Assembly: GCA_000004695.1 (NCBI GenBank)
Contig: CM000152.2
Location: forward strand, 2,976,001-3,040,000
Source: Dictyostelium discoideum
Lineage: Eukaryota
Length of the DNA stretch: 64,000 bases
Direction: 5' to 3'
The notes below the pieces were generated by a model. That model saw only the letters and a list, made by a program, of their open reading frames with translations, did no database searches and was not told the origin of the DNA. Below, piece by piece: positions 9,750-55,543 of the stretch. Every line of letters starts with the position of its first letter. Position 1 is the first letter of the stretch. A program made the position numbers and the translations under genes.

Positions 9750-12700
9750 CTGTTAATATTATTATTATTATTAAAAAAATTAAATAAACATACGATTTAC
9801 AGATAAAACCAAAATGATTTTTAAAGCAGTCATTTGTGGTGCCATTGAAGTTGAATTTGGATCTAAATAAGATAATAATAAATCTACAATATTTGAAGCA
9901 GTTAAGATGAATTGACTATCTTTATTTGAGACTAAACAAGCGATTGCTTCTAAACCCAACATTCTTAATGCTTCGAATTGAGTATCACCCAATAGGGAGA
10001 GATATTTCTTTACAACTCTTTCACGATAATGACCGAGATTAATTTGATCTTGAACGGATTTCAAAGAGATAACTCTTGCAAGTGCAGAAGCGACACGTAA
10101 ATCGAAACCACTATTAATTGAATGTACCATCATATCCAACAATTGATTTACGCCACCCAATTTGACAAATTCAACCTGTACAGAATTTGACTCTAAAAGT
10201 AATGTTAAACACCAAAGAATTTGCAATCTAATCAATTCATTCTGATGAGATAATAGATTGATTAATAGTGGAATACCACCTTTGATGAGGATTTGCTCTC
10301 TATTCTCTTCACGGTCAGCACCATTTGATAATTGTGATAGTAGACGTAGGGTAATGAAGAGGATATTCTCTTTTTGTGAATTCAAAGTCTCCATTAAGAT
10401 ATTGATACCCAATAAATTTCTAAACAAATTCATAATCTCTTCATTGTGTTCAATTAATGTTGAAAATTGTTTTAAACATGATAATTGAATCTCATCATAG
10501 GGCTGATCCATCAATTGGAAGATTAAAGGTACGAAATCTGCCTCCAATAGATATTCAATATTTTCAACATTTTTACAAAGTTGATCAATGGTTTGACTTG
10601 CTCTATGTAAATTCAATAAAGTTGGTTGACTAATTAAATCCTTTACAACATTTGCAATCTTTTCAATTTTTACTCTCTTTTCTGGATCCAATGATTCATT
10701 AAATCTTTTATTTGGATTTAAAAGATTATTCATTTCATTCTTTATTTTTTCTTCAACTTGTTCTTGTGAAACTAATGAATCTTGAGTAGAAGTTGATGAA
10801 GTTGATGATGTTAATTGTTGTTCTGGTTGTTGTTGTTGTTGATCTTGTTGTTGTTGTTGTTGTTGTTGTTGTGTTGGTTTATTAAATCTTTGAATTGTAT
10901 GTAATGGTTGTCTTAAAATTTTTAAAATTGTTGTAAAAGTTGGTCTAACGGATGGATCAGTTGATAAACAAAGTTTAATTAATTTTTCAATTGTGAATGG
11001 ACAATTTGGTAAAGGTGGTCTAAGATAATGAGTATAACCATTGACAGTGTTACTCTTTAGATCGGATAATTTAATATCACGAGCGAACATCTCCCAAAGT
11101 AAAACACCAAAACTGAAAACATCAACCTTTGTATCGTAACCACCCTTTGAACCTGACAAAACATTGAATAGCTCTGGTGCAAGGTATTGGGTGTGTAATA
11201 ATTGATTCTTTAATTGAAAAGACATAAACTTCTTTTTCAAAGTTTCATCCTTCAATGAAGTGAAACCATAATCTTTGATATAGATCTTCAAATCTGAATT
11301 CAATAGAATATTCTTTGGATGCAATGATCTATGAACGATATTAAAAGAGTGAAGGAATGACATGGCCGAAGCAATCTCTTCCGATAGTCTAAGAATTAAT
11401 TGAAGTTCATTCTTCTCATCTAAATTCTTTATGACGATATCTAAATTGCTACCAGTGATATACTCTGTAAAGGTGGTGAATGTTTGATTGTCAAATGATG
11501 CTCCTGCCAATGCTAAAATATTTGGATGTTTAATTGCTACCAATTGCTCAATCTCATTGAATAACATTGGTGTCGCTTGTGATGTTATGAAATTCCATTG
11601 TTTCATCACTATTCTCTTATCCTTATGAATACCTGCTCTTTGTGTTGTACCATTATTACCTGATCCAATAATATCTGATGGTTGTGCTTTAATATACCAT
11701 GATTTATCTGATTGTTGTTGTTCAATTTGATTCTGTTCATCAATTAATTCTTTATTATTATTATTACCATTGCTATTATTATCATTATTTTTATTTGTAA
11801 TATCATCATCTAAATCATTATTACCTAAAATCTTTTGAATAACTTGTTCATCAGGTGTTAATTGTACTTTTACTTTTGATTGTAATGATTGTTCTTCAAC
11901 TGATAATGGATAGAATTGTTGTGATGTATAAACAACTTTTGGAGCTGATGGGTCAAGATTACTTGAAGATGTTAATAGATTTGAATTACTCTCTTTAAAA
12001 TGTGAAATCATATCATCTAATAATTGATCTGAATCTTTGAATGTTGGTGATACAGGTGTTGATACTGTTGTTGTTGGTGGTTGTGGTTGTGATGTTGGTG
12101 TTGGTTGTGGTGCTGCTGGTTGTGGTGCTGCTGATTGTGATGGTGATGGTGATGATAATGTTGGTATTGGTGTTGGTGCTTTTGGTGATGATACTTGAAT
12201 ATCAACTGGTGCACCAAGTTTTGCTGCTGGTCTAGTTGTTAATGTACCATTTGGTGATTTACTAGCATTTAATTTATTAACTGTTGCTGCTGTAGTTGTA
12301 TTAGTAGAGGTAGTGGTTGATGGTGTTACAATTGGTGTTGGTATTGATGTAGTTTTAATCTCTTTTGGTAAACTATTATTACCATTTGGTTCTGGTATAC
12401 CTCCAAATGATTCAATCATTTCATCTAATAAATCTGCTGCATCAATTGCTTCTTTAGTTAAAATAATTGCTCTTTCTGATGAAACTCTCTTTAATATTGG
12501 ATTACCATTCTTTACACTATCTGTTAATATTTGTTCATCTGCTGTTGTTGTTGTTGGTGGTGGTGGTGGTAATTGTAATTCTTCAGTTGATGGTGGTGGT
12601 AATGGTAATTCCTCAGTTGTTGGTGGTGGAGGTAAAGAAATTGAAACAGGTGGTGGTAATTTTGCAATTATTACTACATCATCTTGTTGTGATGGTGGTG

Positions 12701-13510
12701 GTGGTAGTGGTAATGTTGAAGCATTATTATTACTAATTATATTTGATGGATTTGAAGGTGGTGATAAATTTTTAGATAAATATGAAGATGGTTTTCTTTT
12801 ATTTTGAATTGAACTATCTTTCATAAAAGTTTCTTCTAAATCTTTTAAAGTTGATTCTAAATCAAAGGTTGAGGTGAGTCTTAAAGATTTGATTCTAGAA
12901 TTATCAGTTTTAATTGAATTTCTAATTGACTCATCACTCATATCATTTAAGAGTGTATCTAAATAATCAAATCCTCCTTCATTTAAATTACTTGGATGTT
13001 GTGATAATCTTGATTTTCTTTTCTCTGTTGCTGATTGTTGGGCTGCTGTTGTGGTTGTTGTTGAACTATTTCCATTTCCATTTGGCATTTGCTCTTGAAA
13101 TGATATTTTTGTTGCAGAATTACCATTATTATTATTATTATTGTTGTTGTTGCTGTTGTTGTTGTTTAAATTTATTGTTGATTGACCATTTAATGCAGCC
13201 TCTGATTCTGCTAACATCTCATTTAATAAATCATCCAATTCTAATGTGAATTAAAATATAATTCATTTATTTAATTTTTATTATGAAAATAAAATTTTAA
13301 TTTGAAAAAAAAAAAAAAAAAAAAAAAAAAAATTATATAATAAAATAAAATAAAATAAGAAATAGGGAAAAGTAAAATAAAAAGTTTTAAAAAAAAAAAA
13401 AAAATTATTAGATTTTTATCCCATGATTAGGAAAATAAAATTTTAAAAAAAATAATAAAAAAAAAATGGAAAATAAAAAAAAAAAAAAAAAAAATTACTT
13501 ACCAGACATG
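9578..13510 (-). CDS. Protein-kinase-fold protein with C-terminal armadillo/HEAT-like repeats; predicted pseudokinase (HRS instead of HRD, DYG instead of DFG)
   Basis: complement(join(9578..9702,9794..13240,13504..13510)). There is a 7-nt first exon ATGTCTG followed by GTAAGTA; the ORF-track leading M is actually TTG. The kinase core has GSGNNG, VMK, HPNIL, the catalytic loop HRSLHPKN, DYG, and APE. A 3' GTATGT donor at 9793 is followed by a terminal exon ...PIHIPYLKSSNIIEPLQYLKSSPHPSIQKAVEKILMLVSSK*. The C-terminal 450 aa are leucine-rich helical repeats (LLINLL.., GGIPLLINLLSH). Confidence 0.7.
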
Positions 13511-13627
13511 ATTGAGAGTATTTAGTATATAAATAATATCTATTTATAAAGAGTTTGTTTTTCTTTTTTTTTTTTTGTTTTTTTTTTTGTTTTTCTATTT
13601 AATGTGGGGGTGTGTGAGATATTGATA

Positions 13628-42895: not shown

Positions 42896-45800
42896 TTAAT
42901 TTTCAGACATTGGTTTTAATTTTGCTGAAAATGTTTTCATTTGTTTAGCAATGACCTTCTTTTTATATATTGTAACAATAGTAGCAAAAGTTATTGCAAT
43001 AGCAGCAACAGAACAACCAACGATAATTCCAGCCAATTGTGCTTTTGATAATCCAGATGATGGTTTTGGTGAGCATATTGAATTTTCATTATCATTTGTT
43101 GTTGATGGATTTGAATTGAGAAGTAATGAGAAATCTGGATCAATTATTACATTTTTGTTATAGATTGGTACATTAATACCAATAAATGATTGAGATGTGT
43201 GCGAATCACTAATTGCACCTAATGATTTATCTAATAATTCATTTGAAATTGTAATTGGAACTGAATCAACCAATGCTCTTTTAATTAATCTACCATATAA
43301 ACTTTTATTTGATATTGATAATTTAATAAAATCTGAACCTTGACTCGTTGTGCTATCAAATTCTTTATTTGAACATGAATCTGAATCTGAATTAATTATA
43401 GCAGTTGCTGATAAAATTAATTGCAATTGGCTCAATCTAGTTGAAAATGGATATTTCTCAATATAAATTGTATATTTAATTGATGATGGTTTCATTTTAA
43501 TTTCTTGACCTGCAAATTCAATTTTTCTTTCATTTTCAAAGTATTCAATACTAACTGAAATTGGTGTTGTTGTTCCATTTTTATTTATAATATTGGATGA
43601 ATATGTTGATAATTTAGAATTATTTGAAATATAATCCCATTTATCAAATGAATACATATGTAAAACTTTATTATTATAATCGATCTCTCTAATTGCTACA
43701 ACACTTACTAAAGCAACAATGCTTGATTCTGAATTGTCTGATGTACCATTTAATATAATTGTTGGAGATGTATTATTGAATTCTGGTTGAGGCACAACAA
43801 TAACTTTAGAATTACAATCTACACCAACCCATGGAGAATTACAAATACAACCTAATACATCATCGCAGGTACCCTGGGTTGGACCACCACAAATTGGTGT
43901 ACCTCTACATTTGGATGTTAAAATTGGTCTAAAGTATTTAATTCTGTATGGTGTGATTGTGTACATGTTTGATCTTGAATTTCCATTTTTAATTGAAATT
44001 GTAAATGGATCATTTGATGGTTTTACATCATCGACTTTAATAATTGAACCAGATTTCTTTGAAGGTGTTAATGAATAACCTTGACTGAATTCAACATTAA
44101 AATCACCATTTATTGGGAATTTACCATATATCAATAATGAACCACCTTCTGTTGATATTAGACTTGTACCTGTAATTAATCCAGGACTCTGAGAATCCAT
44201 TACAGTGAAGCTTGTTTCAATTAAAAATGGATATCCCATGGTTCTTAATGTAGGCGATGAGTAACCAAAGTATTCACCAAATCCAATTAAACCATAAAGA
44301 TTAACCATAATATCTTGTGGTAATCCAAATCCATACGGTATTGTTAATGTACATTTGTATTGGTTGAATGTTGAATTTACTTGTGTCGTAATTACATCAT
44401 TACATTTAATTTTTTGGAAAGTTGCACTTGTTAAATAAACAATTGGATATTCTTTAATACCTGATCCAATTGAAATTTCATATGTAAATGTTACATCTCT
44501 ATTTAATGATCCAACATTAATACTTTTTGGTTCAAAATCAAATGATTTTAATTCTGGTTGAGTGAAAACACCACCTGGACATTCAGTTTCAATTGAGAAA
44601 AAACTTTTATCTTTAATTGGATATAATGGATTGATATTTGGAGTATAATCTATAGCTTTATTCATAAAGAAAGTTGAATTTAAACCATATCTATCATACA
44701 ATACCATTTCTGCAATTGAGTATGTTTGAGACGTACATGTATTATTATTTAATGTTATATTGATTTGATATGTAAGTTCATTTGAATATTCAATTGGTGA
44801 AACAATTGAAACATTATAAAGAATATTATCAATTGAACCAATAACAACAACATAACCATTATTGAAACCTGAATAATCATTAATTGTAACTACCCAACTA
44901 ATATTATAATTTTCATTATCTATTAATGCCACACCTAAACTTGGATTTTTATTCATTGTTGTTACAATTGGTCCCATTAAATCAATACCTAAAATTTTGT
45001 TAAAAATAAAAAATTAATTAATATTGTTTTAATATTGATTAAATAAAATAGGTTTTACATACGATCACATATTACATTCAATTGGTATTCATAAGGTAAT
45101 TCAGTATTTAAAATATAATGTAAACCTGGTGTTCTAATTGCATATTCAAAATCACCTGGAACAATATTTGGAGGCATAAAAAATTTAAATTCATATCTTG
45201 AATTAATCCATTCACCATTAATTGTTATATTATCCCATTGAGGTATTATTTGAAGATATGGATCAAATGACAATGGAGAATCATTTGTTTCAAGATACAT
45301 AATATTATAACCATATGAGTTTGTTAAATTAACATCATTAAATAAGAAACTTATATTTGATATTGATTCAACATTAAATCCTATAAAATATAATTACTAC
45401 GATTAATAAATAAATAAAAAAACAAAAAATAAATATTGTATGTTACATACCAAAATTATTTAAAACAGGATAAGATAGCAATAGTTCGGTGGAAATAGAA
45501 TTTGTATCAGTTAGCAAAATTTCAAAATCAGGTCCACTCATTATATTATATTGATAGAAAAACTCCAATTCACCATTTTTTAAATCACCACTTAATATAT
45601 TGAAATCTGTTGAATAATATTGATAAATACCATTTGATTTATAACCCCCACTATAACTATTTAATATTATACTTGAAATACTAAATTGGGTCGAATATTT
45701 CAAATAAACCCTTCTAACATTGAAAAAATAATCTTGTTCTCTATACTCTAAAATTGTTGGGCCTGATGAATCTTTGTATAATTGTGGTTAGTTAATAAAA

Positions 45801-47239
45801 TAAACAATAAAGGGATATAATAATATGTGATAACATACTTGTATTGGGACCATTAAAATTTATTGTTTCTCCACCAATATCAAATGTATATCCTTGATCA
45901 GATAAATTTAATGTTGTTAAAACTGAAAAATCCATTATAAATTCATTATTATTTCCACTACCATATCCAAATGGAAAACCAGCAACTGATGTGGTATCCC
46001 AAAGAAATCTTTTCCAAGTATATTCAATTTCTTTTCTATTTATTTGGTTCTTTATAAAACAATTAATATTAAATAATCTATTATTGTTCAAAACAATTTC
46101 ATTGGTTGTTATATTTGAAATATTTAATAGAAAATCTAAAGTTTTTTATTTGTTAGTTTTTTTTTTTTTTTTTTTTGTTTTTATATTTCAAAACTTACAA
46201 GTATTATTATATATTTTTTTAATTTTTGATAATTTTGAATAATTTTGATACTGTAATTTAAAGTTTAGACTCCCATAATAAATTGATTTTAGATTTATGA
46301 AATAGTTAAAGGTTCCATCAATATTACTCGAGACTACCTTTGGTTTAAATGGAGATTCCATCACATTGATATATGGATATCTTTCAATTGGTTTAAAAGT
46401 GAACCAGTATTGGGGATAGTCAAAAGAGGAAATCATTTCAAATTCGCTTGGTTCATAATGAAGTATTGTCATATTATCGTAACTAATTGAACCTATGTTT
46501 TATTTATTAGTTTGAAATCCACTACGAATATTGAAAAATATTTTTTTAAATATACATACTTTTTTTTGGGGATGGGAGATCATATTGTTCAGATCCTATA
46601 AATATACTCCAAATTGGTGAAAAATCATCTGGTGCACCCCTAAATGTTAGTTTATATTTATTAAAATCAAAAGAAAGAGATGCACTAAAAACATCAACAT
46701 TAAATGTTGATAACCATGGTGGGTCTGTATTATCTTCCAAACCTGTAATATTAACATATAAACTATATGTTGATTTAAAAAAATTAAATGTATAATTGGA
46801 AATTGGTACAAATTTTAGATTTTTAGGAGTATCTGATATTTTTTATTTTGTTAGTAAATTTTTTATTATTTTTTATTATTTTTTATTAATATTTACCATA
46901 ACATATAATTTTTTGAGGAAATATTTGGGAAGAGCTTGGATTTTTAGAAGTAACATTGACATAAAAAATTATATCTCCAATATTTGCTGAAAAATATACA
47001 GGTGAAGTGATTGTACCACTAAATTTCTCTAACTGGTATTGGAAAATAGTTGTAGTATTATCCAGGGCGACCCAATCAATGTTTTCAATTTCTTCACTGT
47101 CAATGACTATTGAAGTTTCAAAATTACATCCCCCAAATGTTGCATATTTATTTTTAAAATTTGTTTGTAAAACAAAAATTGATAAAGTAAAATTTAAATA
47201 TAAAATAATAATAACAGTACAAATAAAAAATTTATTCAT
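42896..47239 (-). CDS. Large type-I membrane glycoprotein, cluster paralog A (~1,312 aa): signal peptide, >=5 ~100-aa beta-rich repeat modules, EGF-like Cys-rich module, TM anchor
   Basis: complement(join(42896..44988,45063..45380,45451..45771,45839..46135,46199..46492,46560..46832,46897..47239)). All six introns are phase 1, 65-80 nt, with GTAAAT/GTATGT/GTAAGT donors and ACTAAC-like branch sites. Each of exons 2-6 encodes one module with many NxS/T sites. Exon 7 contains CRGTPICGGPTQGTCDDVLGCICNSPWVGVDCNS and the TM LAGIIVGCSVAAIAITFATIVTIY followed by KKK. Confidence 0.7.
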
Positions 47240-48228: not shown

Positions 48229-48918
<690 letters not shown>

Positions 48919-49069
48919 TAGTAAAAATCTTTCATATAATTAATAATTTACAAATGATAATCCTTAGAAAATAATAAAATAAATAATAATATTGGTTATT
49001 TAAAAATTGTTTTATAATAAATAGAAATATTTATTTAATTATTTTTTTTATTTTAGAAATTCCTTTTTA

Positions 49070-50700
49070 TTATTTCATTGCTATTAATTTATTACTAAAA
49101 ACTTTCATTTTTTTTTTAAGATTTCTTTTCTTTTTGGTTGTAACAACAGTTGCAACAGTTATTGCAATAGCGACAACACAACAACCTATGATTATTCCAG
49201 CTAATTGTGCTTTTGATAATCCAGATGATGACGATGGTTTTGGTGAACATATTGAATTATAATTTGTTGTCGATGGATTTGAGTTGACCTGCAAATTCAA
49301 TTGTTCTTTCATTTCAAAGTATTCAATACTATATTAGATGAATATGTTGATAATTTATAATTATTTGAATTATAAATCCATTTATCGAATGAATACATAT
49401 GTAAAACTTTATTATTATAAACGATCTCTCTAATTGCTACTATATTTATTAATGCTACTATATTTGTTTCTGAATTATCTGATGTTGTTGTTTCGTTTAA
49501 AACAATTGTTGGAGAAGTTGTATTAAATTCTGGTTGAGGTACTATAATAACTTTAGAATTACAATCTACACCAACCCATGGTGAATTACAAATACAACCT
49601 AATAAATTATCACATGTACCATGAGTTGCACCACCACAAATTGGAGTTCCTTTACATTTTGATGGTTGAGGCTTGGTAATAACTTTAAAATTACAATCTT
49701 CGCCATCCCATTGCCAATTACAAATACAACCTAATACATGATTACATGTACCATGAGTTGGACCACCACAAACTGGTGTACCTCTACAGTTTGATCTAAA
49801 ATATTTAATTATGAATGGTGTAACTGTGTACATGTATGATTTTGAATTTCCATTTTTAATCGAAATTGTAAATGGATCATTTGATGGTTTCGCGCCATCT
49901 ACTTTAATAATTAAGCCAGATTTCGTTGAAGGTTTTAATGAATATCCTTGGCTGAATTCAACAGTAAAATCTGCATCTGGTGGGAATCTACCATAAATAA
50001 ATAGTGAACCACCTTCTGATGATATTGGACTTGTACCTGTAATTAATCCAGGGCTTTGAGAATCCAATACTGTGAAACTTGTTTCAATTAAAAATGGATA
50101 TCCATTGTTTCTTAATGTTATTGATGAATAACCAAAGTAAGCTCCAAATCCAATTAAACCATAAAGATTGACTAAAATATCTTGTGGTAATCCAAATCCA
50201 TATGGTAATGTTAATTTACATTTGTATTGGTTGAATGTTGAATTTGTTTGTGTTGTAATTACATCATTACACTTCAATGCTTGAAAGAGCTGCGCTTGTT
50301 AAATAAACAATTGGATATTCTTTAATACCTGATCCAATTGAAATTCCATATGTAAATGTTACATCTCTATTTAAAGATCCAACATTAATACTTTTTGGTT
50401 CAAAATCAAATGATTTTAATTCTGGTTGAATAAAGCTTCTTCCACTTGGACATTCAGTTTCAATTGAGAATAAACTTTTATCTTCAATTGGATATAGCGG
50501 ATTGATATTTGGAGTATAGTCTAAACCTTTATTCATAAAGAAAGTTGAATTTAAACCATATCTAACATATAATACCATTTCTGCAATTGAGTATGTTTGA
50601 GATATACATATGCATTATTATTTAATGTTATATTGATTCGATATGTAAATTCATTTGAATATTCAATTGGTGAAATAATTGAAACATTATAAAGAATATT
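49070..50700 (-). pseudogene. Degenerate fragment of the cluster glycoprotein gene (3' half only; frameshifts, internal deletion, duplicated EGF module)
   Basis: ORF pieces 50267..50578, 49309..50277 and 49070..49312 lie in three different frames. Together they are collinear with aa ~95-690 of exon 7 of paralogs A and B. Upstream exons 1-6 are absent. A segment of ~150 aa between the EGF module and the TM is deleted. The EGF module is tandemly duplicated (CRGTPVCGG...DCNFKVITKPQPSKCKGTPICGG...DCNS). Confidence 0.6.
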
Positions 50701-51045
50701 TTAAATCAAAAATAGAGATCACATGAAAAAATAAAAAAAAAAAAAAAAAAGGAAAAAAAAAAAAAGGAAAAAAAAAAATTATGATCCACATAGAAAATAA
50801 AAGTACATTATTTTATTTCTTATTTTTAATTATTTAATTAATTTACTTTTTTTTTATTTTTTTTTATTTTTTATTTTATTTTATTTCTTTTTTTTTAATA
50901 TTCTTAATAAATTTTATTAAATTGTTGTTGTTAAATTGGAAGATGGTTTTAAATTATTATTATTATTTTTTTTTTTTTTTTTTTTTTCCATTTAATAGAT
51001 GAGGAAAAATTTTAAAATGTCGATTTGATTTTTAAAGACAATTTA

Positions 51046-54000
51046 TTAATTATTTATTGCTTGCATTTTTTTCCCAAACACCTTCATTTCTTTTTTTAGA
51101 GCTTTTTTTCTTTTTATTGTGACAACAGTGGCAAAAACAATTGCAATAGCACCAACGGAACCAACAATTATCCCTGCTAACTGGGCTGTTGTTAAACCAG
51201 ATTTGGATTTTGTTGATTTTGCAGAACAAATTGAATTTTCATTTGTTGTTGTTGATGGATTTGAATTGAGAATTAATGAGAAATCTGGATCAATTTTAAC
51301 ATTTTTATTATAGATTGGTATATTAATACCAATAAATGATTGGGATGTGTGAGAATCACTAATTGCACCTAATGATTTATCTAATAATTCATTTGAAATT
51401 GTAATTGGAGTTGAATCAACCAACGCTCTCCTTATGAATCTACCATATAAACTTTTACCTGATATTGATAATTTAACATAATCTGAACTTTCACTTGTTG
51501 TATTATCAAATTCTTTATTTGAACATGAATCTGAATTTGAATTAATTATTGCAGTGGCTGATATAATTAATTGTAATTGACTCAATTTTGTTGAAAATGG
51601 ATATTGATCAATATAAATTGTATATTTAATTGATGATGGTTTCATTATAATTTCTTGACCTGCAAATTCAATTTTTCTTTCATTTTCAAAGTATTCAATC
51701 TCTACTGAAATTGGTGTCATTGATCCATTTTTATTTATAATATTAGATGAATATATTGAAACATTTGAATTAATTGAATTATAAATCCATTTATCGAATG
51801 AATACATATGTAAAACTTTATTATTATAATCGATCTCTCTAATTGCAACTACATTTATTAATGCTACTATATTAGTTTCTGAATTATCTGATGTCGTTTC
51901 ATTTAATATAATTGTTGGTGAACTTGTATTAAATACTGGTTGAGGTACAACAATAACTTTAGAATTACAATCTACACCAACCCATGGTGAATTGCAAATA
52001 CAACCTAATACATCATCACATGTACCATGAGTTGCACCACCACAAATTGGTGTTCCTTTACATTTTGATGGTAATGTTGTTTTAATAAATCCTCTTTTAT
52101 ATGGTTTAATTATATATGGATTTGATTTTGAATTACCATTTTTGATCCAAATTGTAAGTGGACCACTTGATGGTTTTACATCATCGACTTTAATAATTGA
52201 ACCAGACTTCTCTAGAGGTAGTAATGAATAACCTTGACTGAACTCAACAGTATAATAAACATCTGGTGGGAATCTACCATAAATAAATAATAAACCACCT
52301 TCTGTTGATATTGAACTTGTACCTGTAATTATTCCTCCACTATTTGAGTTTATGACTGTGAAACTTGTTTCTATTAAAAATGGATATCCCAATTGCTGTA
52401 ATGAATATGATGAATAACCAAAGTAAGCTCCAAATCCTATTAAACCATAAAGATTAACGATTATATCCTTTGGTAATCCAAATCCATATGGTATTGTTAA
52501 TGTACATTTGTATTCGTTGAATGTTGAATTTGTTTTTGTTGTAATTACATCAATACATTTCAATATTTGAAGAGTTGAACTAGTTAAATAAACAATTGGA
52601 TATTCTTTAATACCTGATCCAATTGAAATTCCATATGTAAATGTTACATTTCTATTTAATGATCCAACATCAATATTTTTTGGTTCAAAATCAAATGATT
52701 TTAATTCTGGTTGAATGAAACTACCACTTGGGCATTCAGTTTGAATTGAATGTAAATTCCTATCACTTATTTTAAATAATGGATTGATATTTGGAGTAAA
52801 ATCTACTGCTTTATTTATATAAAAAGTTGAATTTAAACCATATCTATCATATAATACCATTTCTGCAATTGAGTATGTTTGAGATATACATGTATTATTA
52901 TTTAATGTTATATTGATTTGATATGTAAATTCATTTGAAAATTTAATTGGTGAAATAATTGAAACATTATAAAGAATATTATCAATTGAACCAATAACAA
53001 CAACATAACCATTATTGAAACCATTATAATCCTTAACTGTAAATGTCCAACTAATATTATAATTTTCATTATCTATTAGTGCCACACCTAAACTTGGTTC
53101 TTTATTCATTGTTGTTACAATTGGTCCCATTAAATCAATATCTAAAAACATATGTTTTTTAAAATAAAATTAATAAAACTATAATTAAAAAAATTAAATA
53201 AACAATTTAAAGATACATACGATCACTAATTATATTCAATTGGAATTCATCAGGTAATTCAGTATTTAAAATATATTGTAAATTTGGAGTTTTTATAGCA
53301 TATTCAAAAGCTCCTGGAACAATATTTGGAGGCATGTAAAATATAAATTCATAACGAGAATTTACCCATTCACCTTTAATTGTTATATTATCCCATTGAG
53401 GTATAATTTGAAGACATGGATTAAATGGTAATGGAGTATCATATGTTTCAAGGTACATTATATTATAACCATATGAATTTGTTAAATTTACGTCATTATA
53501 AAAGAAACTAATTTTTGATATATTCTCTGCATTAAAATCTATTAATTTATAATATTAAAAATTAGGAAAAAAGACTTTAAAAATTAATATAAAATAAAAT
53601 TAAAATAATAAACATACCATAATTTTGATCATATAGTTGTGGAAATGAAAGGGTATCTAAAAATGATTGATAATAACTATTTTGTTCTAAAATTGTATAT
53701 TCTGAATTTGAATCATAGATATTTAAAACTATAAAATCATTCTTTAGTAATCCATAAGTATAAATAAATTCAATAATACCATTATTAAGACTACCACTGA
53801 TAATGTTAAAATCTGTTGAAAGATAAACATAGGAATTCTGGAAAGCATTATTGATACTAAAATGGAATAATTCAATTTTAGAAATTCCATTTGGTGTTGA
53901 ATAATTAAATCTAAATAAAAGTTTGTTATCATCTTCTGAAAAAGTATCTAAAATATTAAATTTGGTAATTAATGGTGCTGAAAGATCTATAAATTAATTT

Positions 54001-55543
54001 TATAATTAGGTTAATAATAATTTAAATAAATAATATTAGAAATTTGTAAAAATATAATTTGTTACTTTTAAAATTAGGACCAGAGAATGAATATGAATAA
54101 CTTCCAACTGAAAATGAGTATGAACTATTTGATACATCCAACATTGTAAAAATTGAAATATCTAAATTAAAATTTTTATTATTTCCAGAACCAAAACCAA
54201 AAGGAAATGATTCATAATTTGTTTTACCACCTTCCCAATTATATTCAATTTCATTTCTACTTGTTAAATTCTCTCCTTTATAATTTAAGAATGTTAATAA
54301 ATCATCTAAATTAACTATATTTTTTGAACTTTGTAAATCTGTTGGTTCAAATTTAAAATCTTGATCTATATTTTTAATTAAAATGTTAGAAAAATAATAA
54401 AAATAAAAAAACAAAATTATAATTCTAATTCTTACATTTATAACTATTTTTATCTTGATATACATCTGAATAATTTTGAAGTGATAATGTACATAATACT
54501 TCACCAATAGAAATAATAAGTCTTGCATTAATAAAGTAGTTAAGAGATCCATCATCATAACTTGATACTATCTTTGGTAAGAAAAAAGAATCTCTTAAAT
54601 TAATATATGGATATCTTTCATTTGTTTTAATATTAATCCAAAATTGAGGATAATCAAATTTTGAATTCATATTATGATTAATATTATAGTAATCAATTAC
54701 TGCAGAATTTACATAACTAATTGAACCTTTTTTTTTTTTTAATTAATTATTAATTAACATTAATATTGTAAAGATAATCAAAATGTAAATTATTATTAAA
54801 ACTTACTATTAAATGGTGATGATATATTAAATTTTGGTGAACCATCAATGTATTCAAAAGACCATGTTTTTGGAGCAACGGTTTTTGGTGTACCGAAAAA
54901 TGTTAATTTGTATCTTCCATCATATTCATAGTCAATAGAAACTGAAAAAATACCACTCTCTGAAGTAGTAAGTCTGGGAACATATGAGACATCATCAATT
55001 AACCCACTCACATTAACATAACATGAATATGCTGATGTGAAATAATTATATGAATAACCAGATATTTGTTCAATTGTGAAATCAGTTGGAATTTCTATAT
55101 AATATAAATAAATAGATTTTTTTTTTTTTTTAATAAATGTTTAAAAAAAGGAAAATATATATATATATATTTTAATTACCCTGACACATAGGATAAGTTG
55201 TATGATATAAAAAACCACCATTTTTTGAATATGCTTTAACTCCAATTTCACATTGATTTATTGGACAATATACTCTCGCAGAAAATAACTGTGCTGTTTC
55301 ATTGTGAAAAATAACATTTACATCATTATAAGTTGTGAAAGCATTGAAACCACCCCAAGTTACATTATCCAATCCATTTAAATCTGAAACCAAAATTGAA
55401 AAACTGAATTCACATGAACCACCTATTGCATAAAAAGAAGATCCAAGTGAAAATTTAAATTCTTCAAATTTTAAATCTGAAATAACAAATTGAACAATAA
55501 ATCCAAACACCAATAAAAAATAAAAGTAAATATTAATTTTCAT
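51046..55543 (-). CDS. Large type-I membrane glycoprotein, cluster paralog B (~1,341 aa), same architecture as paralog A
   Basis: complement(join(51046..53141,53221..53538,53618..53986,54066..54365,54436..54726,54807..55094,55180..55543)). The intron positions and phases (all phase 1) are identical to paralog A. It has a signal peptide MKINIYFYFLLVFGFIVQFVIS, the EGF-like module CKGTPICGGATHGTCDDVLGCICNSPWVGVDCNS, and the TM LAGIIVGSVGAIAIVFATVVTI. Confidence 0.7.

Follow-up and report, generated by a model that had tools for sequence, protein, structure and literature searches.

A probable non-processed pseudogene of the double-EGF type within a ComC-like gene cluster of Dictyostelium discoideum

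Two intact ComC-like genes and, between them, a shorter relative are located on the minus strand of the 64,000-nucleotide (nt) stretch of Dictyostelium discoideum AX4 DNA analysed here (hereafter the window), which is composed of ~22% G+C and contains poly-Asn tracts and short AT-rich introns. The middle copy, M (49070..50706, minus strand), is annotated as DDB_G0280155, a chromosome 3 locus, and the question raised by this locus is whether M represents a functional, if shortened, gene or merely what is left of one. The comC gene itself specifies EGF domains, a signal peptide and a transmembrane (TM) helix, and is restricted to group-4 dictyostelids (PMC4931340). It is very probable that M is a non-processed pseudogene, i.e., the decaying remnant, reduced to a truncated last exon, of a so-called C-type (double-EGF) member of a three-gene cluster with the order B - C - A, in which A and B denote the intact flanking paralogues. 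The initial annotation of this stretch, which had described a non-functional copy that is truncated at its 5' end, frameshifted and internally deleted, thus pointed to a real element and located it correctly.

Remnant M and its lesions

In blastn comparisons M aligns with A and B at 84-92% nucleotide identity, the homology extending from ~50706 to 49035 on the minus strand, and over collinear stretches of 1.4-1.6 kb it is 91.4% identical to Mo, its syntenic counterpart in the assembly ACTFIY, and 88.9% identical to Cz, an intact C-type gene of the assembly ACTFIZ. This collinear nucleotide and protein homology makes M a member of the ComC-like family by descent. Its 322-amino acid (aa) open reading frame (ORF) at 49309-50277 (minus strand) exhibits 100% identity to DDB_G0280155 (XP_641275, UniProt Q54VT0), listed as a 410-aa ‘hypothetical protein’ of AX4. 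As had been proposed, only the 3' half of the gene is retained: the homology begins 130-150 nt inside the last exon, upstream of which only a T-rich spacer extends to the stop codon of B (51046), and no further copy of the 5' exons was found anywhere in the window.

The two flanking paralogues, which together with M represent the only ComC-like copies within the window, serve as the reference for this comparison. Paralogue A (42896..47239, minus strand) is an intact seven-exon gene and paralogue B (51046..55543, minus strand) is likewise intact, each with a single EGF module. Their large last exons (42896-44988 in A and 51046-53141 in B; ORFs 42896-44977 of 693 aa and 51046-53151 of 701 aa, respectively) encode the Pfam domains DUF7035, DUF7034, DUF7949 (EGF-like) and ComC_SSD, followed by a TM helix, and both are members of the ComC-like family. 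That these neighbours are intact, as initially claimed, is supported by GT-AG models of ~1240 aa which can be built for either gene, by the restriction to introns of all indels other than multiples of three between A and its ACTFIY orthologue, Ao, and by the annotation of identical DNA in the assembly ACTFIT, where B and A encode 1341 and 1312 aa, respectively, each with all four Pfam families. The real introns of A and B measure 70-115 nt and are mostly 86-90% A+T.

The lesions of M were mapped by means of three-way and ten-way alignments together with motif coordinates, the latter alignment also including two D. dimigraforme copies (Dd1 and Dd2) and one copy from D. citrinum (Dc1). Alignment to A and B, which had been proposed as a means of locating the breakpoints, places five frame-breaking indels in M (+2, +1, -37, -1 and -386 nt), by which it is divided into four frame segments; all coordinates that follow refer to the minus strand. 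The first frameshift is a 2-nt insertion (GC) at 50612..50613, which in the ten-sequence alignment is seen in none of A, B, Mo, Cz, Dd1, Dd2 and Dc1, while the second, an additional T in a T-run (50284..50286), divides DUF7034 between two ORFs. The third is the junction of a 37-nt deletion (49331..49332, with the break at 49332/49331), which is absent in Mo and Cz and gives rise to a premature TGA (49311-49309), and the fourth is an A-run (49312..49314) that is 1 nt shorter than in the relatives to which it was aligned. Finally, a 386-nt deletion with the junction GGTCAA/CTCAAATCC (49283..49287, with the break at 49284/49283) carries a 4-nt TCAA microhomology and removes ComC_SSD. The 37-, 1- and 386-nt deletions together amount to 424 nt, or ~141 codons, and leave almost nothing of Pfam ComC_SSD, which is present in A, B and the intact orthologue; the loss of a segment between EGF and TM, for which ~150 aa had been estimated, is thereby confirmed.

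Since the 1-nt and 386-nt deletions add up to 387 nt (3 x 129), the tail of M is returned to its original frame. This tail (49070..49282) comprises the stalk, the TM helix (~49204-49136), the cytoplasmic end ...KKKMKVFSNKLIAMK and the original stop codon (49072-49070), and it differs from the corresponding tails of Mo and Cz by 4.3% and 5.9%, respectively, as compared to 20-27% from those of A and B. The EGF-bearing 322-aa ORF is read in another frame, the TM helix being located in an 80-aa ORF. The three ORF pieces into which the frame had been reported to be broken (50267-50578, 49309-50277 and 49070-49312) are therefore real, although they do not occupy three different frames, as the first and third share the same absolute frame. 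Pfam searches with M returned residues 1-52 of DUF7034 in one ORF and residues 53-118 in another, as well as DUF7949 twice, but no match to DUF7035 or ComC_SSD, whereas A, B, Cz and Mo possess the full set. M consequently does not encode the domain series DUF7035-DUF7034-DUF7949-ComC_SSD in a single frame, nor does it combine an in-frame N-terminal signal peptide with a C-terminal TM anchor. Peptides unique to M include NWQWDGEDCNFK and VITKPQPSK.

The five frame-breaking indels, the premature TGA, the 5' truncation and the loss of domains are disabling lesions of the kind that define a non-processed pseudogene, and an origin other than retrotransposition is evident from the position of M within the cluster and from its lack of both a poly-A tail and a target-site duplication. 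Furthermore, the slot it occupies, between B and a gene with a long poly-Asn tract (the polyN gene), is syntenic in AX4, ACTFIT and ACTFIY, and in the ACTFIY orthologue intron 6 is still preceded by the end of exon 6.

Two of the five indels are located in short homopolymer runs, and it might therefore be supposed that the frameshifts are sequencing or assembly errors of the AX4 reference and that the gene is actually open. This supposition can practically be dismissed. Positions 49000-50900 of the window are an exact substring of the independent chromosome-level D. discoideum assembly GCA_054883475.1 (ACTFIT), which, like its companion assemblies, was produced from Nanopore and Illumina data (PRJNA1300491; PMC12745789), and a 13.5-kb comparison of ACTFIT with window positions 56594-43060 yielded 0 mismatches, while the five gaps were confined to homopolymers of intergenic sequence. 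In addition, neither the 37- and 386-nt deletions nor the 5' loss belong to the types of error that sequencing produces, and repair of the small indels would restore neither the 5' half of the gene nor its SSD. AX2-214 is the sole laboratory strain of this assembly set (PMC12745789), so that ACTFIT is probably AX2. The lesions, being identical in this second assembly, are real and not sequencing errors, which settles a question raised by the initial annotation. AX2 and AX4 are separate derivatives of NC4, and the lesions probably date from NC4 or earlier.

M very probably arose as follows. In the NC4/AX4 lineage, everything upstream of mid-DUF7035, including the promoter, the signal peptide and ~1.5 kb that is kept in other strains, was lost from the C-type gene, which also acquired the two small slippage-type insertions (+2 and +1 nt), and three deletions within 50 nt of each other, the largest of them at the TCAA microhomology, removed ComC_SSD. 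These three clustered deletions may reflect a single repair event.

Annotated proteins and the timing of inactivation

A second explanation for the locus is that M constitutes a functional shortened gene as annotated, either in the form of the 410-aa DDB_G0280155 product or of the 463-aa protein ACTFIT_010891, the second protein found to cluster with DDB_G0280155, with very short introns skipping the frameshifts. Two pipelines have indeed called a gene at M, GT...AG pairs are available at suitable sites (removal of a 41-nt GT..AG segment at ~49331-49291 would even place the TM tail in frame with the 322-aa ORF), and the substitutions in M still look constrained. The two gene models, however, conflict with each other. 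The AX4 model starts at an internal Met (50578; MVLYVRYG...), bridges the +1 frameshift by a 37-nt ‘intron’ (50272..50308, minus strand; 62% A+T), such that the protein (P0001) reads ...GIKEYPI/CNDV... at the junction, and terminates at the premature TGA resulting from the 37-nt deletion, while the ACTFIT_010891 model employs a 49-nt ‘intron’ (50328-50280; 69% A+T) and a second one of ~68 nt which reaches the TM tail. All three ‘introns’ align collinearly with coding positions conserved across A, B, Mo and Cz (the 37-nt ‘intron’ with VYLTS..LK in A, B and Cz), and their lengths, as well as the A+T contents of the first two, differ from those of the genuine introns in paralogues A and B; across the genome, introns average 146 nt (PMC3188802). 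In both models translation starts from an internal Met without a signal peptide, the core of DUF7034 is either interrupted or missing, and ComC_SSD is absent. Moreover, two assemblies that carry the D. discoideum label, ACTFIW and ACTFIR, have lost nearly all of the M region, which is thus dispensable. On balance, a functional shortened gene is highly improbable. The lack of a continuous frame from the EGF modules to the anchor, together with the lack of secretory targeting, argues that the 410- and 463-aa proteins, including the 37-nt ‘intron’, are gene-prediction artefacts, and M is predicted to be non-functional.

In the literature searched, the main texts do not mention DDB_G0280155 or DDB_G0280157, and DDB_G0280155 was not found in the available part of the life-cycle proteome supplement (PMC12821622), which represents weak evidence. 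DDB_G0280155 (Q54VT0; ACTFIT_010891) should be re-annotated as a pseudogene, as the artefactual proteins present in reference proteomes are liable to distort domain counts, orthology assignments and searches of proteomic data. A large protein search returned the artefactual protein of M but not the AX4 proteins of A and B.

The substitution pattern bears on when the gene was lost. The Nei-Gojobori ratio of non-synonymous to synonymous substitution rates (dN/dS) was 0.32 for M-Mo (dS 0.134), as compared to 0.27 for A-Ao and 0.41 for B-Bo, Bo being the ACTFIY orthologue of B. When changes were polarised by outgroups and the neutral non-synonymous fraction was set at 0.73, as calibrated from the empirical spectrum, the M branch was found to carry 16 synonymous and 22 non-synonymous changes, which corresponds, at low power, to an omega of ~0.50 (confidence interval 0.25-1.01; P(neutral)=0.027). 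The corresponding values for Mo, A and B were 0.43, 0.39 and 0.64, respectively, and M is indistinguishable from A and B. No nonsense substitutions are present in the homologous codons of M.

Several observations weigh against the interpretation of M as a decaying pseudogene or complicate it. In M and Mo taken together, 47 changes are non-synonymous and 37 synonymous (P=6e-4 versus neutrality), and relaxed constraint is thus not demonstrated, which would not be expected of a gene dead since before AX4 and ACTFIY split; exons 1-5 are nonetheless missing in all four close strains; and a transcript may still be produced from M. In addition, the small indels of the non-AX4 assemblies are known from assembly sequence alone, and the positional orthology to M of the intact ACTFIZ copies, which are located on a contig other than that of the syntenic locus, is putative.

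The simplest reading of these data is that the C-type gene would still have been under constraint when AX4 and ACTFIY split, and that it was disabled independently and fairly recently in each lineage, making the inactivation of M recent relative to that split. Its description as a copy caught in mid-decay is a fair one, as an omega of ~0.5 fits a recent inactivation. A different timing, in which M was already dead and 5'-truncated before the AX4/ACTFIW/ACTFIR/ACTFIY split and owed its apparent constraint to conversion by an intact C-type gene that has since been lost, is less probable but retains an appreciable chance. Parsimony prefers a single loss of exons 1-5 for all four strains, broken and intact copies can remain 96-98.6% identical in ACTFIZ, and the ACTFIW remnant has its left edge where the 386-nt deletion of AX4 has its right breakpoint. 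On the other hand, the 5' edges are dissimilar (the end of exon 6 in ACTFIY versus 130-150 nt into exon 7 in AX4), M and Mo have no disabling lesion in common, and a second C-type copy was seen neither in the AX4 window nor in the ACTFIY sequence L002. Separate and fairly recent disablement appears the more probable timing, as against a copy that was truncated early and either remained under constraint itself or was converted repeatedly.

The C-type paralogue and exchange between copies

The most conspicuous feature of M is its pair of EGF-like modules, which the initial annotation had regarded as unique to this copy and as a product of its decay. The presence of two modules is borne out by the double match to Pfam DUF7949 and by Tandem Repeats Finder (49545-49795, period 132, 1.9 copies, 86% matches), the 132-nt tandem repeat causing a net gain of 120 nt in M relative to A and B. 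Module 1, the diverged module diagnostic of the C-type, extends from Cys1 to Cys6 at 49693..49788 (minus strand; CRGTPVCGG...NWQWDGEDC), and module 2, the canonical module, is located at 49561..49656 (minus strand; CKGTPICGG...NSPWVGVDC). At the nucleotide level, module 1 differs by 12-17% from every single-EGF module and by 7-11% among C-type copies (Cz and Mo), while module 2 differs by 3.6% from the EGF of B and by 7-8% from the second module of Cz and Mo.

Neither the uniqueness of this arrangement nor its link to decay was upheld. The intact Cz gene of the D. cf. discoideum assembly ACTFIZ encodes 1376 aa (L001:15530-20124; L001 and L008 denote ACTFIZ sequences, L002 the ACTFIY, L003 the D. 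dimigraforme, L004 the D. citrinum, L006 the ACTFIW and L007 the ACTFIR sequence), and its 738-aa last-exon ORF specifies DUF7035, DUF7034, two copies of DUF7949, ComC_SSD, a TM helix and the tail ...KVFNNKLIAMK. Its modules (CIGTPVCGG...NWQWEGEDCNSKVISKPQPS and KCKGTPICGG...NSPWVGVDCNS) match those of M module for module. The double EGF is also found in ACTFIZ_002333 (1170 aa), in a third, disrupted copy on the Cz contig, and in Mo, where it lies within a 545-aa open stretch; the inter-module junction (...KVIxKPQP/SKC...) and the module 1 signature NWQWEGEDC are common to every C-type copy of the D. discoideum complex. As the same two modules occur in intact C-type genes, the duplication is older than the inactivation and derives from a working gene. 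As judged from these comparisons, the double EGF is an inherited hallmark of a third, C-type paralogue rather than a lesion acquired during decay, and the predicted architecture of this paralogue comprises a signal peptide, N-terminal exons, DUF7035, DUF7034, two DUF7949 domains, ComC_SSD, a TM helix and a tail ending in ...NKLIAMK.

The C-type thus differs from A and B within the ComC-like family by its second, diverged EGF module. M shares with the intact C-type genes (Cz and ACTFIZ_002333) and with ACTFIY_010255 the same EGF modules, junction and C-terminal tail at 89-91% identity; these relatives retain ComC_SSD, and the ACTFIZ genes also exons 1-6, whereas M has lost more at its 5' end and carries five frame-breaking indels of its own. 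Compared to ComC and the ComC-like EGF membrane proteins in general, M similarly keeps part of DUF7034, the EGF-like domain (twice) and the TM tail, but, unlike them, it is without a signal peptide, N-terminal half and ComC_SSD, with DUF7034 split and the TM helix out of frame. A double-EGF paralogue has accordingly been lost from the laboratory D. discoideum lineage while it is intact in a close relative, which is of relevance when adhesion and signalling repertoires are compared between group-4 genomes.

Different segments of the C-type sequence support different relationships in neighbour-joining trees. The segment preceding the EGF modules groups with A (100% bootstrap), while for the second EGF module and SSD segments a grouping with A (34-40%) or B (22-25%) is obtained, raw distances being lower to B; the tail falls outside A and B (78%), its nearest relative being the short copy of D. 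dimigraforme. This discordance points to past exchange among the paralogues, from which the C-type may have arisen. A simple A/B hybrid, with the 5' part from A and the 3' part from B joined by unequal crossing-over at the EGF, was considered on account of the raw distances but is not demonstrated by these trees, which support only the affinity of the pre-EGF segment with A. D. dimigraforme Dd2 also possesses two EGF modules, which have some derived residues (Q-W-x-G-acidic-D-C) in common with the C-type but a different linker; the distances are uninformative, and it is uncertain whether this pair is homologous to the C-type duplication. Another D. dimigraforme sequence (L003 2770-4869, plus strand) consists of a last exon only, with an open 696-aa ORF (P0008) and a C-type-like tail ...KVFNNKLEKMK; no upstream exons are present on the contig, and the copy is therefore 5'-truncated yet undamaged-looking. 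Three middle fragments in D. citrinum were rejected as orthologues of M, since they carry a single EGF and represent species-specific partial duplicates, the 5' parts of which are 97% identical to that species' own downstream gene and the remainder ~90% identical to its own upstream gene.

It had also been suggested that M serves as a reservoir for gene conversion into its neighbours, and tracts shared with A or B were accordingly sought. In AX4 the outcome was negative. M-Mo differences that match A or B of AX4 number 30 and 33, as compared to 28 and 29 in the reciprocal control; at variable sites, the longest runs without a mismatch do not reach significance (P=0.08 for M-A and P=0.18 for M-B), with impossible cross-species pairs scoring better; and only 6/32 private changes of B, all scattered, match M. 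No conversion tract between M and A or B was therefore detectable in AX4, the test being weak for A, for which only one orthologue was available. The mechanism itself nevertheless operates in the cluster. In ACTFIY, Bo contains two patches of Mo sequence, the first of which (L002 7533-7557) comprises six private changes within 25 nt, all identical to Mo and five of them not shared by Ao (permutation P<=0.0002), while the second (L002 8187-8261) includes a C-type-specific AAC insertion; both depart from the B-type state common to AX4, ACTFIW, ACTFIR and D. citrinum. Patch 1 adjoins a 1-nt deletion that breaks the frame of Bo, the gene model of which is split and contains a bridging intron, and this only clear case of conversion therefore appears harmful.

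These results also determine how much weight is given to the proposal that M is important as a donor, i.e., as a store of variants copied into A or B. The two patches in Bo and the 96-98.6% identity between Cz and a transposon-interrupted partial C-type copy of ACTFIZ (M'1, on L001) speak in its favour, the latter similarity being attributable either to recent duplication or to homogenisation. Set against the negative AX4 tests and a clear ACTFIY tract that appears damaging rather than useful, the proposal is quite unlikely.

Strain comparison and neighbouring features

In ACTFIY the gene order is B, a 137-aa ORF, Mo, the polyN gene, a Tc5-like transposon and A, and this conserved order identifies Mo as the syntenic orthologue of M. 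Mo (ACTFIY_010255) possesses an undeleted SSD and a tail, ...KKKMKVFSNKLIAMK, identical to that of M, and alignment shows none of the disabling lesions of M in either Mo or Cz. The lesions of Mo itself are an in-frame deletion of 30 nt, a 4-nt deletion ~25 nt upstream of the position of the +1 insertion of M, and the loss of the last cysteine of EGF module 1; its 5' truncation lies at the end of exon 6. As the 4-nt deletion of Mo differs from the 1-nt insertion of M, the two frameshifts are independent events. Three independent frameshifts, namely the +1 of M, the -4 of Mo and the -1 of Bo, fall within ~30 nt of one another (GIKEYPIVYLTS..LKC), at window positions 50284-50310 and at ~11237 and ~7532 of L002.

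Between B and M the spacer (50707..51045, minus strand) is ~1.5 kb shorter in AX4 than in the sister strains. What is missing comprises a Cys-rich ORF of 137 aa encoded on the other strand, as well as intron 6 with the adjoining end of exon 6 and ~135 nt from the start of exon 7, and alignable sequence is limited to 51099-50836 (L002 9017-9300) and 50706-50640 (L002 10843-10909). The ~137-aa ORF, with a signal peptide-like N-terminus and several cysteines, separates B from the middle copy in all of the relatives that were compared (L002 9390-9803, L006 18117-18464, L007 18112-18417 and L008 18184-18594, all minus strand, and as five copies in L004, where these are interleaved with partial ComC-like copies), while it is found neither in the AX4 window nor in the AX2-like assembly and has no Pfam match.

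ACTFIW and ACTFIR, presumably CR116C and OT3A, are ~92% identical to AX4 at the locus and retain only a C-type tail remnant of ~215 nt and ~85 nt, respectively. B-orthologue distances from AX4 (4.5 / 4.4 / 6.6 / 11.7%) suggest the grouping ((AX4,(FIW,FIR)),FIY),D. citrinum. Taken together, the assemblies provide a decay series, from an intact gene (on the ACTFIZ contig) through a copy with one frameshift (ACTFIY) and a remnant with multiple lesions (AX4/AX2) to mere stubs (ACTFIW and ACTFIR). This series represents the stepwise dismantling of a tandem paralogue in an AT-rich genome, in the course of which one broken copy has converted its neighbour. Conceptually M is not new, being an ordinary and well-documented sort of pseudogene, and its chief use lies in the correction of annotation and in the illustration of stepwise gene death.

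Classical non-processed pseudogenes in tandem clusters include the pseudo-globins and CYP21A1P. M resembles these in its paralogue setting, its genomic structure and its indels, as well as in the donor tracts observed in ACTFIY, and differs from them in its annotation as protein-coding, its lack of detectable relaxation and the absence of donor activity in AX4. A parallel closer to home is the tgr family, with 38 genes and 26 pseudogenes in AX4 and with strain-specific gains, losses and rearrangements (PMC12745789; ComC and EGF are not mentioned in that study). The tgr pseudogenes and the tgrB1/C1 hotspot are similar in that they involve chromosome 3, developmentally relevant single-pass surface proteins and many truncated copies, but neither A, B nor M contains TIG repeats. 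Gene numbering suggests that the M locus lies outside the tgrBC hotspot, and a link of the ComC-like cluster to allorecognition is without evidence. A rather unlikely extension of this comparison is that the M slot is itself a long-lived local hotspot of gene birth, death and exchange, and thus a smaller, second analogue of the tgrBC hotspot that would act on a different family of developmental surface proteins. This idea is based on the differing content of the slot among strains (a gene that is intact, broken or reduced to a stub, the unrelated ORF of 1037 aa, and three partial duplicates in D. citrinum), on breakpoints that recur at the same nucleotides in independent lineages, and on the donation of short patches, in part linked to a frameshift, by the middle copy to its neighbour.

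With regard to such breakpoints, the right breakpoint of the 386-nt deletion in AX4 (GGTCAA/CTCAAATCC, 49283-49284) lies within 2 nt of the left edge of the ACTFIW tail (...ATAACG/TTCAAATCC, L006 ~20406), which points to either an ancestral break or a breakage hotspot. The unrelated ORF preceding the tail stub is uninterrupted in ACTFIR (1037 aa; L007 19502-22615, plus strand) and present as a 239-aa 3' fragment in ACTFIW (L006 19638-20357, plus strand); it has no Pfam match and no counterpart at the AX4, ACTFIY, ACTFIZ (L001), D. citrinum or D. dimigraforme loci. Excision of a transposon as the cause of the 386-nt deletion was considered and rejected, as the 1037-aa ORF is not associated with terminal inverted repeats and does not match Pfam. 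At the other end, the 5' edge of M (50706) is located 14-20 nt from the right breakpoint (L001 10384) of an independent 260-nt deletion that removed intron 6 and the start of exon 7 from the ACTFIZ partial copy; a common ancestral 5' breakpoint of M and M'1 was likewise rejected, as at this distance neither edge can be derived from the other.

The ACTFIZ partial C-type copy also contains a ~2-kb AT-rich insertion (L001 ~11523-13519) with 15-nt terminal inverted repeats (CACGGGAAAAAAAAA ... TTTTTTTTTCCCGTG), the flanks of which rejoin precisely when compared to the intact copy, marking it as non-autonomous DNA transposon-like. The syntenic slot of ACTFIZ (JBTAPI010000065.1), after B and a 136-aa ORF, is occupied by a full-length gene annotated as encoding 1370 aa (L008 21270-22872, plus strand), whose exon 1 is only 30-45% identical to exon 1 of A, B, Cz and Dd2. 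In ACTFIY, the polyN gene and Ao are separated by a gene for a Tc5/pogo-like DDE_1 transposase (L002 14159-16002, minus strand), which AX4 lacks.

As regards the immediate neighbours in AX4, DDB_G0280159 is the gene upstream of paralogue B, and B is very probably DDB_G0280157, which is named ‘EGF-like domain-containing protein’ in the available part of the life-cycle proteome supplement (PMC12821622). The polyN gene (48229-48918, plus strand) encodes a coiled-coil protein with a long poly-Asn tract that returned no match in Pfam. It is convergent with M, the two stop codons being ~150 nt apart, and occupies the same position in ACTFIY, ACTFIW, ACTFIR and ACTFIT; it is annotated as 281 aa in the latter, and its true start is probably located upstream of the 229-aa ORF.

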